A DNA stretch of 64,000 nt from Escherichia phage BAU.Micro_ELP-22, in the sequence record OR699282.2. One strand, written 5' to 3'. Positions 12,420 through 60,370 of the stretch are shown piece after piece; position 1 is the first letter of the stretch, and the number at the start of each line of letters is the position of its first letter. The position numbers were made by a program, and so were the translations under genes. Under the pieces are notes generated by a model that saw nothing but the letters and a program-made list of their open reading frames with translations, was not told the DNA's origin and did not search any database.

Positions 12420-13061
12420 ATGACTAAGCAAGACATATTCAAAACTTTAATTGACATTTTGCGTCCATCAAAAACTCGTTGTGCGATGGAGTTTGATATT
12501 CCTTATGCTGAACGCGTAATCTTTCCACAAGTTAAAGCTGCTGGACTTACTTTGCTTGGAATGGGGATGTACTCTGTAGTAGTTGAACATAAAAACTATC
12601 CTGGACGTGCATTTAAAGTAACCACTTCACGCTGGGATGGTTTTCGTGCTTATGCAAAGTACTGCATTGAAAACGCAGGAACCAAGTTTCTTCCAGTGAT
12701 CTACAGTGCCAACGAACAAGGAAACTTTGGATGGTATGAGATGGACAAGTACTATCCTATAATTAAACAAAAAAATAATTATGATGACTTTGTTAGTACT
12801 AAAATTGGAGATTTATATTCTTATGCACATGCTGGTCAGTACGCTACTTCAGTGAATGATATGCGTGGTAATTCTGAAGAGATTGCTATTGCAACGGTCG
12901 CTGCTAACATCATGAAAGAGTTTCACGGGCGTTTTGTACCAGACATTCATTCCAGTAATGTCATGATGGATAAAGATGGCAATGTATTCATTACTGATCC
13001 TCTTTCGTGTGATGTACGTAGAGAAATACCAGTTACTGAAGAAGATCCAGTTTTTTATTGA
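12420..13061 (+). CDS. putative protein-kinase-like protein
   Basis: GxG loop, AFKV lysine motif, DIHSSNVMMD catalytic-loop-like segment; SD GAGGA. Confidence 0.5.
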   Translation: MTKQDIFKTLIDILRPSKTRCAMEFDIPYAERVIFPQVKAAGLTLLGMGMYSVVVEHKNYPGRAFKVTTSRWDGFRAYAKYCIENAGTKFLPVIYSANEQGNFGWYEMDKYYPIIKQKNNYDDFVSTKIGDLYSYAHAGQYATSVNDMRGNSEEIAIATVAANIMKEFHGRFVPDIHSSNVMMDKDGNVFITDPLSCDVRREIPVTEEDPVFY

Positions 13062-13122
13062 CAGAACTGATGTTCTGGTGTATTCTTAATAAACCATAAA
13101 AATTGCGGTAAAGGATAAAATC

Positions 13123-13404
13123 ATGCGTTCATTTGAAAACTTAATAGGTAAGCATCTTTTATCTGAAATTGATGCAGACGTTAAAGAATTATCCAAATCA
13201 AAAAGTTACATTCATTTGGATGAACTGTTTATTAAGTACGGTGAGATTGGTTTTAAGTCATTATTTGTTTTTACTATGAAAGTACATAGTTTAAAGTACT
13301 TCGATTTGAGTTCTAAAGATGGTGAACCGAATCTATATTACATGTATTACCTTAAGAACAAAGATGAAGCTAATACATTACTCTCTGAATATATATTGGG
13401 GTAA
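13123..13404 (+). CDS. hypothetical protein
   Basis: ORF 93 aa; SD AAGGA. Confidence 0.6.
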   Translation: MRSFENLIGKHLLSEIDADVKELSKSKSYIHLDELFIKYGEIGFKSLFVFTMKVHSLKYFDLSSKDGEPNLYYMYYLKNKDEANTLLSEYILG

Positions 13405-13406
13405 AA

Positions 13407-13745
13407 ATGGAACAATATTTTGAATTAATAAACAAAGTATCATTTTATGTAGTATCTTTGGTTTGGGTGTATTATATGTTTTGCTACATTATTGCATTCT
13501 TCCGATACACTACTTTATATGAACGTATCTACTATGATGCCCCAATTTCATTCTTGATGTTTTGTGCATGTACGTGGGGAATATTAGAAGTACTGATATG
13601 TGGGTATAGTACTGATGAATTAAATCTGGTATCGGTCTTGACTGGGTTTTCATTTGTTGTTATGATAGCTGCCGTTCCAGTATGGTTGTTCTTTGGACTA
13701 GTTCATCGCATTGATATATGGCGTTCTAATATCCCTGAAAAGTAA
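13407..13745 (+). CDS. small membrane protein, paralog family M
   Basis: 112 aa, hydrophobic; C-terminal basic tail (RSNIPEK) shared with paralogs. Confidence 0.65.
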   Translation: MEQYFELINKVSFYVVSLVWVYYMFCYIIAFFRYTTLYERIYYDAPISFLMFCACTWGILEVLICGYSTDELNLVSVLTGFSFVVMIAAVPVWLFFGLVHRIDIWRSNIPEK

Positions 13746-13748
13746 GGA

Positions 13749-14096
13749 TTGGTAATGATTTATTACACTAACATGTTTGCCTATGCTGTTGCTTGCATTT
13801 ACATTGTTTACTTCTTATTCGGTGGAGTACTGTGCTTCTTTAAGTACAAAACGTTGTTCAACCGAATGTACCCAAATCATCCAATTGTAGTTGTACTTTT
13901 GATTCTTTCAGTTTCTCAAATAATCGTTGAAACTACAATGGGTATCAGTAGTGTACATTATAGTTTTGGCACTATAGTAATTATTACTATGCTTATTGCA
14001 TACATTTTAGTACTTGGATATGGTATCTTTGGTAATATTGGTATGAAAATGTATCATCGAATTAAAACATTACGTGATAATCTACCGGAGCGTTGA
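13749..14096 (+). CDS. small membrane protein, paralog family M
   Basis: 115 aa; tail RDNLPER. Confidence 0.65.
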   Translation: MVMIYYTNMFAYAVACIYIVYFLFGGVLCFFKYKTLFNRMYPNHPIVVVLLILSVSQIIVETTMGISSVHYSFGTIVIITMLIAYILVLGYGIFGNIGMKMYHRIKTLRDNLPER

Positions 14097-14097
14097 T

Positions 14098-14442
14098 ATG
14101 TATAATTTGAACCTAATCTCATATATTATAACAACACTGTTTACATTCTATGCCTTTGTTGGTATAATCCTACTGTACTTTAAATTTTATAAAGTGTTTA
14201 ACCGTTTCTATCCTTCAATGGAGAATGAGTTTTTCTTTGTGTTGTACGTAGGTTACACATTAATGGCTACATGTTTCACTGTAGCCGATGGTGTCATCGG
14301 CATTAAAACTGATTCCCCAAATGGTAGTACGCTGGTTGCATTTATTCTTACTGGATTCCTTGCAACTTATATTGCCTTCATTACAACATGGTCAGTGGTT
14401 GAATTTCTCTTGCGACTACGAAAGAATATGCCGAATCGATAG
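14098..14442 (+). CDS. small membrane protein, paralog family M
   Basis: Start at internal ATG; tail RKNMPNR. Confidence 0.6.
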   Translation: MYNLNLISYIITTLFTFYAFVGIILLYFKFYKVFNRFYPSMENEFFFVLYVGYTLMATCFTVADGVIGIKTDSPNGSTLVAFILTGFLATYIAFITTWSVVEFLLRLRKNMPNR

Positions 14443-14451
14443 GAGACATAT

Positions 14452-14706
14452 ATGTTTGCGTTGCGTAATAAAAACACTAAAGAATTATTATGTATTGATA
14501 CCGTATGGGATTGTGCGGGATCAACTACAGTTCTTGAAGAAGGAACTGGATATTGCGTGTTTGTTGTTCATGATAGGAATGAACTCGAATTATTACTTGC
14601 TGAGTTCAATGCTGGTGGTAATCCTAACAGTACTGAATACCCTGAGATTATCAATCCAGCACCACCAGGCTCTTATGAAATTCTACAACTGTGGGAGTTG
14701 AAGTAA
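14452..14706 (+). CDS. hypothetical protein
   Basis: ORF 84 aa; SD AGGAGA. Confidence 0.6.
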   Translation: MFALRNKNTKELLCIDTVWDCAGSTTVLEEGTGYCVFVVHDRNELELLLAEFNAGGNPNSTEYPEIINPAPPGSYEILQLWELK

Positions 14707-58650: not shown

Positions 58651-58745
58651 TAGAATCCATTTAAAGTACTATTTGACATTGCCCAGATAGTACTTTATAA
58701 TAGACTCTAACTTGTAGTACTAACTTAACTAATAGGATGTATACC

Positions 58746-59141
58746 ATGATTACTAAATTCTACGCTACCCGTGAAGCTGCCCGTATTGTTGCACGCGAGG
58801 AAGGCGAAACATTTAAAGACATGGGCAAAGATGCACCGAAAGGTCAACGCTGGGCCGTACAGTTCAAAGAGATCTCTGATATTGTGAATTCACCGGAGCC
58901 AGTACTAACAGCAGCAGAACTAAAACGAGCGGATTTACTGGCGTCAATACTTGATGCACAAGATGAGTTTATCGCTGATTCTGATATCAAAGTACAGACA
59001 AACCATACCGCATGGACTCACGCGGATCACCTGGCAAACCTTAAGCGTCCAAGTGAACTGATTCGCAACCAGAAAGAGATCCGACACGACCGTAAGGGTA
59101 ATCGTGTAACAGTATACAGTAAACGCCGCCAGGTTATCTAA
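58746..59141 (+). CDS. hypothetical protein, paralog of 45558..45824
   Basis: 131 aa; class B promoter upstream. Confidence 0.65.
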   Translation: MITKFYATREAARIVAREEGETFKDMGKDAPKGQRWAVQFKEISDIVNSPEPVLTAAELKRADLLASILDAQDEFIADSDIKVQTNHTAWTHADHLANLKRPSELIRNQKEIRHDRKGNRVTVYSKRRQVI

Positions 59142-59163
59142 TAACTTGCAGTACTAACAACAC

Positions 59164-59188
59164 GGCGGGATCAGTTCCCGCCTTTTTT
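59164..59188 (+). terminator. intrinsic terminator
   Basis: GGCGGGA-TCAGT-TCCCGCC hairpin + T6. Confidence 0.65.
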
Positions 59189-59202
59189 ATAGGACAAACA
59201 AA

Positions 59203-59457
59203 ATGATTAAGGTTCAACTATATAAAGATAACATCTTACGGGTACACTATAAAGCACCACAGAGAATCATCACAAAGGCCGTACAGCTTGCTAATGAGTT
59301 TATTAATGGTAACCTATTACCTAGGAAGTTAAGCAACGGGAAACTGCGTGTAATCGACGTGGACACTAACAACAGGATAGTAATCGAGAACACAGGAAAG
59401 ATAAACCTTTATGAGCATCAACAATACAATAAGAAAATAAAACTAATATCACGTTGA
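59203..59457 (+). CDS. hypothetical protein
   Basis: ORF 84 aa; SD AGGA. Confidence 0.55.
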   Translation: MIKVQLYKDNILRVHYKAPQRIITKAVQLANEFINGNLLPRKLSNGKLRVIDVDTNNRIVIENTGKINLYEHQQYNKKIKLISR

Positions 59458-59511
59458 CAGTACTCAAATGTTTTAGTACTATATGTACATACCAACACGG
59501 GGAGAAACAAA

Positions 59512-59754
59512 ATGATTACTTTAGAAAAACGTATCAAAGAAACTACATCGCTGGTGGAACTGTTAACAGTACTCAAATGTAAAACTACTCGGTTTAGTAC
59601 ACCGGACTTTATTAATATGGTTGATGTTAACGGTCGTTATCGTATTGCAGTAGAACAAGGCACGGCAAAAGTATTCAGTACTAAAAACACTAAGGAAGTG
59701 ATTCACGCGGTTAGTGTGAAAAAAGTGGTTGCCATTGATAGTAAAGTACTGTAA
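59512..59754 (+). CDS. hypothetical protein
   Basis: ORF 80 aa; SD GGGGAGAAA. Confidence 0.6.
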   Translation: MITLEKRIKETTSLVELLTVLKCKTTRFSTPDFINMVDVNGRYRIAVEQGTAKVFSTKNTKEVIHAVSVKKVVAIDSKVL

Positions 59755-59785
59755 GATAGTTTCATTAACTCAAGGAGAACATGCA

Positions 59786-60370
59786 ATGCGTAATTATACT
59801 AAATTCATCCGTACCCTGTCAGAAATGGAAACCAACAAAGAGATCCTTTCAGCTTGTCGGTTAGCTGGCCTGGAGATCATCGGTGCTGGTTCTTCCCGTA
59901 TAGTTTTCGCTTTAAATGATCGGTTAGTGATTAAGGTCGCGAATTGTGATGCGGGTGTAGAACAAAATGAAACTGAATGTAAGGTATGGAATTTTTTAGA
60001 CTATGACCGCCCTCAGTTGAAACAGTACTTTGCAAAGGTGCATATGCATTTATGCGATCCTGATAATATGTTTATCGTTATGGATCGGTTGAGTACTGCA
60101 AGCAAAGGCAGTGTGAAGCACGTAAACGCGTGCAATGAATTAAAGTACAATATTAAACGTAATGCAATCGAACGCCAGCACCGCTTTGCTGATGCACTAC
60201 AACACGTTGATGATACATTATCAACACTAACGATAAGAGATATCAGAAAACAGAATATCGGCCAGGATCGTAATGGACTTATTAAAGTACTTGATTACGG
60301 TTTAACCAGCAATATCTGGAATCAGTACTATAAAAAGCGTGATGTGGCAGCAAGTAAGGTAACACGATAA
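59786..60370 (+). CDS. putative protein-kinase-like protein
   Basis: IIGAGSSRIVF..VIKV (G-loop plus Lys), DIRKQN catalytic-loop-like, KVLDYG DFG-like; SD AAGGAGAA. Confidence 0.55.
   Translation: MRNYTKFIRTLSEMETNKEILSACRLAGLEIIGAGSSRIVFALNDRLVIKVANCDAGVEQNETECKVWNFLDYDRPQLKQYFAKVHMHLCDPDNMFIVMDRLSTASKGSVKHVNACNELKYNIKRNAIERQHRFADALQHVDDTLSTLTIRDIRKQNIGQDRNGLIKVLDYGLTSNIWNQYYKKRDVAASKVTR

Follow-up and report, generated by a model that had tools for sequence, protein, structure and literature searches.

Three C-lobe-less minimal kinase-like proteins of two families encoded by an Asteriusvirus jumbo coliphage

A stretch of 64,000 nucleotides (nt) from Escherichia phage BAU.Micro_ELP-22 (sequence record OR699282.2), referred to here as the window and belonging to an Asteriusvirus (121Q/PBECO4/G17-like jumbo coliphage), carries three genes, A, B and C, for small kinase-like proteins of 213, 123 and 194 amino acids (aa). 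By sequence comparison they are one T7-kinase-type protein (A) and two distant members of PHROG 4301 (B and C), with no recent paralogues among them. All three are probably minimal kinases devoid of a C-lobe, with predicted phosphotransfer activity and expression from host-type promoters. Gene A is already known and some records label gene C a kinase; the novelty lies in gene B. The new element is that B belongs to a large family of kinase cores of about 120 aa, most of which stop at the Asp-Phe-Gly (DFG) motif, and PHROG 4301, which had no functional label so far, is assigned a kinase-like fold.

Kinase motifs and chain ends

A first-pass annotation of the window had listed the three open reading frames (ORFs), which exist as claimed, and had read a Gly-rich loop, a Lys and a D-x-x-x-x-N segment in each; direct reading finds these elements in the right order in A, B and C. 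Gene A has G47-x-G49, K66 (RAFKV), D175-x-H-x-x-N180 and D193-P-L. Gene B has G7-A-T-R10-x-V, K21 (YAIKI), E41, D103-A-K-P-E-N108 and D120-Y-G, followed by one residue and the stop, while gene C has G33-x-G35-S-x-R38-x-V, K50 (LVIKV), E64, D152-x-x-K-x-N157 and D170-Y-G. The DFG-like D-Y-G noted earlier holds for B and C, but the "ITD" proposed for gene A picked the right Asp in the wrong register, the true motif being D193-P-L.

All three proteins keep the ATP-binding N-lobe (Gly-rich loop, beta3 Lys and helix-C acid, the last of which is uncertain in gene A, with D73 as a candidate), helix E, the D-x-x-x-x-N segment and the metal-binding Asp. The catalytic residues of subdomains II, III, VIb and VII (Lys, Glu, Asp...Asn, Asp) are conserved in every family alignment, and the beta3 Lys, catalytic Asp and DFG Asp, retained in A, B and C, are nearly invariant in their families. 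The chains run on for 20 residues in A, 3 in B and 24 in C past the DFG-equivalent Asp. Since they stop at or shortly past the metal-binding Asp, they have neither activation segment nor P+1 loop nor helices F to I, and subdomains VIII-XI (activation segment/APE, helix F Asp, helices G-I) are absent from all three. Gene B is, as had been remarked, far shorter than a canonical kinase domain. "Minimal kinases", one of the readings offered at the outset, is a fair description of such chains; "pseudokinases", another, is an unlikely one, given that each family conserves the Lys, the catalytic Asp/Glu and the metal-binding Asp.

A composite regular expression of the four motifs in order matched exactly A, B and C out of the 611 ORFs of at least 40 aa in the six frames of the window, and had 0 matches in 300 residue shuffles. 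The expression was written post hoc, with the genes already seen; the profile and fold evidence is independent of it. Searches of the 611 ORFs by hmmsearch with profiles of all three families found no extra copies. The gathering threshold of PF00069 is reached by none of the three, gene C scoring 17.0 bits against 31.7 and genes A and B having no match. Comparison with kinase folds, which the first-pass annotation had recommended, places A, B and C among protein-kinase-like proteins, and not in a fold unrelated to that superfamily: the models of A and B match kinases in Foldseek and the profile of C matches kinases of the Protein Data Bank (PDB). Unrelated proteins with chance motifs, the last of the earlier readings, are rejected on the regular expression together with the profile and fold evidence.

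Gene B and its family

Gene B matches phrog_4301, listed under "unknown function", with an E value of 9e-43. Its AlphaFold2 (AF2) model has a predicted local distance difference test score (pLDDT) of 90.1 and a predicted template-modelling score (pTM) of 0.80. The model runs through beta1-3, helix C, beta4-5, helix E, the catalytic loop, beta7-8 and D-Y-G, with helix D missing, an extent that corresponds to approximately residues 43-187 of PKA. The best 50 PDB matches of the model in Foldseek are all kinases, including Lpg2603, TTK/Mps1, WbdD, CDK2 and S6K1, at probabilities of 0.90-1.00, with Lpg2603 at the top (E 9e-4). In BFVD, small phage proteins are matched with template-modelling (TM) scores up to 0.86; the matches comprise a "protein kinase domain" of Ralstonia phage RP12 and C-type orthologues (RaK2, CBB), then giant-virus Ser/Thr kinases. 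Compared as a profile with PDB sequences, the segment from the catalytic loop through DFG aligns to TTK. PADLOC gave no match to gene B.

An exhaustive hidden Markov model search for the B family returned at least 1,212 clusters (50% identity level) at E<=1e-3, 639 of them at E<=1e-10. Nearly all are 110-135 aa long, and the median is 123 aa among the best 150 of the 1,212 clusters. The D-x-G pattern is matched in 68 listed members, and the chain stops within 3 residues of it in 59 of these 68; sampled C-termini of other listed members read D-Y-G or D-Y-A plus 0-3 residues. More distant relatives, for example in Nipunavirus-like phages of Pseudomonas, have tails of 15-60 residues or N-terminal extensions, and PHROG 4301 as a whole contains two size classes, one of about 120 aa stopping at DFG and a longer one, about 140-250 aa, in which short tails or N-terminal helices are added. 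Conservation was counted in 148 diverse members: G7 (145/145), R10 (145/145), K21 (147/147), E41 (148/148) and D120 (144/144) do not vary. The catalytic acid is Asp in 91 and Glu in 51 (142/144 acidic), the adjacent Lys is present in 124/148, and the Mg-binding position holds Asn in 96 and Ser in 46 (142 in total). Gene B is, on this evidence, a member of a large family and not a fragment, and may represent the strongest reduction of the kinase fold seen so far. A frameshift or read-through fusion with the ORF at 16568 was considered as well; the family median and the listed members, most of which stop right after D-Y-G, count against it.

The B family is found in T4-like (Dhakavirus), Aeromonas, Pseudomonas sipho-, Erwinia, Ralstonia and Klebsiella jumbo phages and in lambdoid contigs, and among isolated phages a kinase label is attached to it in 2 records only. 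A scan of bacterial genomes with the B profile, limited by the single peptide pattern used, gave no relatives, and literature searches returned nothing specific on a phage kinase of about 120 aa or on PHROG 4301. Gene B is cut short or split in some close relatives: it has 102 aa with a replaced N-terminus in Salmonella phage SD-1_S14, is covered to 65% in TH47, and appears as 84 + 38 aa (97% identity) in the UniProt pair A0A2Z5HG44 and A0A2Z5HGC2. These breaks may be sequencing or annotation errors; otherwise, some isolates can do without the gene.

Gene C and the relationship among the three proteins

Gene C also matches phrog_4301 (E 1.8e-41). It begins with a stretch of about 30 aa that is probably helical and ends 22 residues after D-Y-G. 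In the curated databases (Pfam, NCBIfam, PADLOC) it has sub-threshold kinase matches, to Pkinase (Pfam; E 0.004, under the cut-off) and to the PD-T4-6 kinase. The family profile has 313 matches to PDB sequences at E<=10, and kinases make up 58/60 among the matches listed; MKK4 is reached at E 1.6e-4 and MKK7 at E 5e-4 (range of MKK4/MKK7, 1.6e-4 to 1e-3), in alignments that run from the Gly-rich loop to just past DFG. K50, E64, D152 and D170 are invariant in 14 sequences, and in BFVD the models of the C-type orthologues from RaK2 (H6X4G3) and CBB superpose on that of gene B. These comparisons support the classification of gene C as protein-kinase-like. C-type proteins are restricted to RaK2/121Q/CBB-like jumbo phages; the counterpart in fEgEco12 is g044, "serine/threonine-protein kinase PRP4", and a kinase annotation is carried by the counterparts in fEgEco12, ph0011, K64-1 and fENko-Kae01.

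Pairwise BLAST among A, B and C gave no significant match. Between B and C, the hhalign probability was 12% with shallow profiles and 94.2% with a 74-sequence B profile (E 1.1e-7, 116 columns, the whole length of B). The two families have in common a G-x-[ST]-R-x-V Gly-rich loop, N-x-x-E in helix C and K-x-[LI]-D-Y-G. The profiles of A and C show a weak, motif-consistent similarity (E 0.013), and a relationship of A to B was rejected for want of any hhalign signal. Of the three paralogs originally proposed, B and C stand as distant relatives, but gene A belongs to the separate T7-kinase family.

Gene A and the T7 kinase

Gene A matches phrog_15752 at E 4e-91 and phrog_2828, the family containing T7 gp0.7 (PMC13645617), at E 7.8e-17. 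BLASTP against T7 gp0.7 (the T7 kinase, T7K) gives E 5e-9 and 26% identity over 178 aa, spanning residues 41-210 of gene A and 68-230 of T7K, with the Gly-rich loop, the Lys, D-x-H-S-x-N and I-T-D-P-[LV]-S in register. The shared motifs are G-x-G-x-[FY]-S, the Lys of R-[AV]-[FI]-K-V, D-[IM]-H-S-x-N and I-T-D-P-[LV]-S, and K66, D175, N180, D193 and P194 are invariant in 21 family members. These sequence criteria make gene A a genuine homologue of the T7 gp0.7 kinase domain. A precomputed Pfam assignment of its family is PF27024. Its AF2 model (pLDDT 91.8, pTM 0.87) opens with three helices ahead of the N-lobe; helices D and E, the catalytic loop and the Asp come next, and the last 18 residues form a less confidently modelled tail. 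In the models of both A and B no helix follows the metal-binding Asp. Foldseek found 168 PDB matches at E<=1e-3, the best 50 of which are protein kinases (DMPK, MRCK, ROCK, MEK1 and others) and two aminoglycoside phosphotransferases, APH(3')-IIIa and APH(4)-Ia, at a probability of about 1.0.

T7 gp0.7 carries a C-terminal DNA-binding/shut-off (SO) domain that gene A lacks, its chain stopping 18 residues after DPL; the SO domain characterises the Autographiviridae architecture rather than the kinase domain. The recombinant T7K kinase domain 1-242, with DPV at 213-215, is active in vitro (PMC13645617). It continues for about 27 residues after the metal-binding Asp, against about 20 in gene A. 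The autophosphorylated Ser216 of T7K has S, G or A as its counterpart in the gene A family. Both genes lie behind host-type promoters, a predicted one in the case of gene A. Proteins of the gene A type have already been published for phages G17 and Sharanji: jumbophage homologues of T7K, including those of G17 and Munch, were described as having lost the SO domain and as less conserved at the third DPV residue, their "function and promiscuity to be elucidated" (PMC13645617). For Sharanji, a T7-kinase homologue and "another protein kinase" of unknown function were named (PMC11895373), the latter probably of the gene C type.

Comparison with other kinases

Genes B and C resemble T7K in architecture only, as kinases that stop after the DFG position; profile comparisons with T7K-type proteins gave no significant sequence similarity. 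In Hanks-type kinases (PF00069, such as MKK4/MKK7 and TTK/Mps1), subdomains I-VII are likewise present in order, and gene B shares with them the Ser/Thr-type D-x-K-P-E-N loop and D-Y-G. Unlike Hanks-type kinases, B and C have the Gly-rich loop G-x-[ST]-R-x-V with its invariant Arg, and helix D is missing in B. Reduced atypical kinases, namely Legionella Lpg2603, P. syringae HopBF1, Bud32/PRPK and RIO, are likewise small and without a conventional activation loop. These proteins have about 200-290 aa and keep a helix-F-like C-lobe core; Lpg2603 has 283 aa, against the approximately 120 aa of gene B that stop at DFG, and no sequence relationship of gene B to this group is detectable. Helix F is the last element common to all kinases of the superfamily and stabilises the catalytic loop (Scheeff & Bourne, PMC1261164), so that gene B, without it, is smaller than the "universal core" defined in that work.

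Proposed function and alternative explanations

As C-lobe-less minimal kinases, A, B and C would bind Mg-ATP and phosphorylate host and phage proteins on Ser/Thr or possibly Tyr. Lacking an activation loop, they would have no off-switch, and lacking a peptide-binding groove they should discriminate little between sequences. Such constitutive, low-specificity phosphotransfer is proposed by analogy with the kinase domain of T7K, which phosphorylates nearly all proteins and follows no sequence motif (PMC13645617); it is most secure for A, where homology underlies it, plausible for C and least certain for B. Host RNA polymerase would transcribe the three genes from sigma-70-type promoters. Such promoters, and the position of C orthologues in a terminal repeat, fit an early role, for example in reprogramming the host or disarming its defences, and a part in host takeover is plausible by that analogy.

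Several observations weigh against this interpretation. The TM-scores of gene B to solved kinases are modest (0.5-0.58, and 0.41-0.58 over the best 50 matches, normalised to the query), its profile reaches PDB sequences only at E of about 0.25, gene B has no Pfam or NCBIfam match, and PF00069 is matched by 0/74 members of its family. The absence of helix F means that an isolated core of 120 aa may be unstable or inactive alone, and since gene B is cut short in some close relatives, it would be dispensable at least in the laboratory. In gene C, position +2 from the catalytic Asp is not Lys. The promoters are consensus matches only, and their overall number is not enriched over shuffles. In other phages, B-family genes occupy late or structural regions, so that early host takeover is not a family-wide rule.

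It is unlikely that B, and perhaps C, are nucleotide-binding or ATPase modules and not phosphotransferases, acting as a switch like Bud32 in KEOPS, or as a sponge or decoy. Bud32 works as an ATPase regulator. Such a role would suit a protein without helix F and every substrate-binding element, in whose family the catalytic acid (D/E) and the Mg-binding residue (N/S) vary around an invariant ATP-binding K/E/D triad and the Gly-rich loop carries an invariant Arg that is atypical for protein kinases. However, the catalytic-base position remains acidic in nearly all B members and the neighbouring Lys is kept in most, which is hard to explain if no hydroxyl is deprotonated, and T7K provides an example of high activity in a kinase that ends just past the DFG position. 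Still less probable is that gene B is half of a two-part enzyme, completed in trans by a phage or host protein or by self-association, in which the partner supplies helix-F-like support and/or is the substrate. Most listed B members do stop at or within a few residues of D-Y-G, which, judged from the model and PMC1261164, would uncover the side of the catalytic loop that is normally buried, and B has no counterpart of the N-terminal helices, some 30-40 aa, present in A and C. A recurring partner was not seen within 1.5 kilobases (kb) on either side, where no flanking family occurs in more than 2 of 22 independent lineages; the gene directly downstream of B homologues differs in every lineage examined. 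A kinase split with that adjacent gene was rejected, the small genes after B homologues being mutually unrelated.

Phosphorylation of a small molecule (sugar, lipid, antibiotic or nucleotide signal) by one or more of the proteins is improbable. The polysaccharide kinase WbdD among the structural neighbours of B, and the two aminoglycoside phosphotransferases among those of A, speak for it, but most structural neighbours are Ser/Thr or dual-specificity protein kinases, the D-x-K-P-E-N loop of gene B is of the Ser/Thr type, and gene A is homologous to a proven protein kinase, T7K. Small-molecule kinases of the kinase fold also possess a large C-terminal substrate-binding subdomain, and this is absent from A, B and C. 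There is next to no room for the idea that the motifs match by chance or that gene B is what remains of a longer, decaying kinase gene. The insignificant pairwise BLAST comparisons and the shortened copies of gene B in a few close relatives would agree with it, but it is refuted by the conservation of the family, its size (more than 1,200 clusters, with a listed median of 123 aa), the confident models and the structural neighbours of gene B, all kinases among the best 50.

Under the preferred reading, minimal C-lobe-less kinases, one phage with three such proteins from two families offers a natural test of whether the lack of an activation loop and a peptide groove leads to constitutive, promiscuous activity. 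A further proposal, held tentatively and rather doubtful at present, is that B-type proteins of about 120 aa are either autonomous, active protein kinases or "half-kinases" that dock on a host protein serving as both completing partner and target. If autonomous, they would be the smallest known kinases and would show that phosphotransfer needs no more than the N-lobe, helix E, the catalytic loop and the DFG Asp, and neither helix F nor a substrate-binding lobe. In either form, PHROG 4301 would constitute a large class of phage enzymes for post-translational modification, possibly with a general anti-defence role like that of T7K, for which recent work showed phosphorylation of nearly the entire proteome and the disarming of several defence systems. 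An active B family would redefine the minimal kinase and provide a very small engineering scaffold; an inactive one would represent a new kind of nucleotide-binding phage factor.

Genomic context

The region of genes A and B is 98-99.6% identical to the Asteriusvirus jumbo coliphages phAPEC6, slurp01, CRJP21, G17, Sharanji and 121Q (98% for Escherichia phage G17), and the region of gene C matches the same group. Gene A corresponds to 121Q gp205, "protein kinase", and gene B to 121Q gp215, "hypothetical". The ATG of gene A at 12420 is preceded by a GAGGA ribosome-binding site (RBS), and distant homologues all begin MTK. An alternative start at 12387, 33 nt upstream, adopted in several database records (121Q gp205, P0029), is an ATG within the -10-like TATGAT, directly past the terminator T-run; because the RBS and the homologue N-termini point to 12420, that is taken as the true start. 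Gene C has an AAGGAG RBS 8 nt upstream of its start, and gene B, which starts 9 nt past the preceding stop, has no clear Shine-Dalgarno sequence.

The element upstream of gene A contains a promoter-like site at 12362-12391, with a 10/12 consensus match and TG, and is a probable promoter for host RNA polymerase. The gene run 15163-16837, which includes gene B, is tightly packed and, from its layout, appears to be co-transcribed. The hairpins beside genes A and C are copies of one repeat, GG(G/A)TTGACT(T/C)CGGTCAG(C/T)CC, which occurs 13 times in the window against 0.06 expected by chance. Its 5' arm holds the -35 box TTGACT, and at 4 copies a -10-like hexamer lies 17-18 nt downstream. The repeat appears to combine terminator and promoter and to punctuate the gene arrays of the + strand.

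Table 1. Coordinates of the kinase-like genes, their key residues and the associated regulatory elements in the window
Feature	Position (nt)	Strand	Remarks
Gene A, T7-kinase-like (T7K/gp0.7) kinase domain without shut-off domain	12420..13061	+	213 aa
Gene A key residues	K66 12615-12617; D175 12942-12944; N180 12957-12959; D193-P-L 12996-13004		
Gene B, ultra-minimal kinase-like protein	16195..16566	+	123 aa; phrog_4301
Gene B key residues	K21 16255-16257; E41 16315-16317; D103 16501-16503; N108 16516-16518; D120 16552-16554		
Gene C, minimal kinase-like protein	59786..60370	+	194 aa; phrog_4301
Gene C key residues	K50 59933-59935; E64 59975-59977; D152 60239-60241; N157 60254-60256; D170 60293-60295		
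Terminator-like hairpin with TTGACT -35 box, then extended -10 (TG-n-TATGAT)	12357..12391	+	directly upstream of gene A
Perfect sigma-70 consensus TTGACA-16-TATAAT	15088..15115	+	12/12; ahead of gene run 15163-16837
Terminator-like hairpin with embedded TTGACT	60382..60409	+	12 nt past gene C stop; same repeat as upstream of gene A
Copies of the repeated hairpin	6505, 9747, 9930, 11274, 12359, 16933, 17516, 18215, 19936, 53357, 57395, 60386, 62649	+	

C orthologues lie about 16-17 kb inside a direct terminal repeat (DTR) of about 21 kb in vB_Ec-M-J, fEgEco12 and fENko-Kae01, and the repeat of fEgEco12 has been confirmed by restriction digest (PMC13070987). In fEgEco12 and vB_Ec-M-J, gene C sits 16.2-16.7 kb from the genome end, and by synteny with these two phages the boundary of the repeat should fall near 43-47 kb of the window. 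The expected boundary coincides with a gene-free gap of 121Q at about 42.8-44.8 kb and with a sign change of the GC skew near 42 kb.

A lone B-family gene was seen in a Salmonella lambdoid contig (L009, 3001-3372), between a lysis cassette (holin, lysozyme, Rz-like) and the Nu1/gpA terminase, which is the classic moron site of lambdoid phages. This suggests that temperate phages, too, carry members of the B family, with expression that may be late or from the prophage. In 2 of the 22 lineages, distant from each other, a PHROG-4301-type gene adjoins a homologue of denV (pyrimidine-dimer glycosylase). In the window (16195-17509), a single small gene separates gene B from the denV downstream; in Nipunavirus-like Pseudomonas phages (L035, 2402-3489; L046 = NP1, 1402-2312) the kinase gene overlaps the start of denV. 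The two denV proteins are 37% identical (E 3e-27), and the kinase-like gene with denV could be a mobile two-gene cassette or reflect a functional link.

Just downstream of gene A, three tandem genes (13407-13745, 13749-14096 and 14074-14442) encode similar small hydrophobic, membrane-like proteins of 112-122 aa that share a segment resembling [RK]-[YF]-x-T/V-L/F-[YF]-x-R-[IMF]-Y; the trio looks like a local triplication. According to the annotation of 121Q, the region syntenic to about 24,700-38,900 (- strand) holds an array of about 12 genes for RCC1-like repeat proteins, and that syntenic to about 39,000-42,800 (+ strand) an array of about 17 tiny genes of about 60 aa each.

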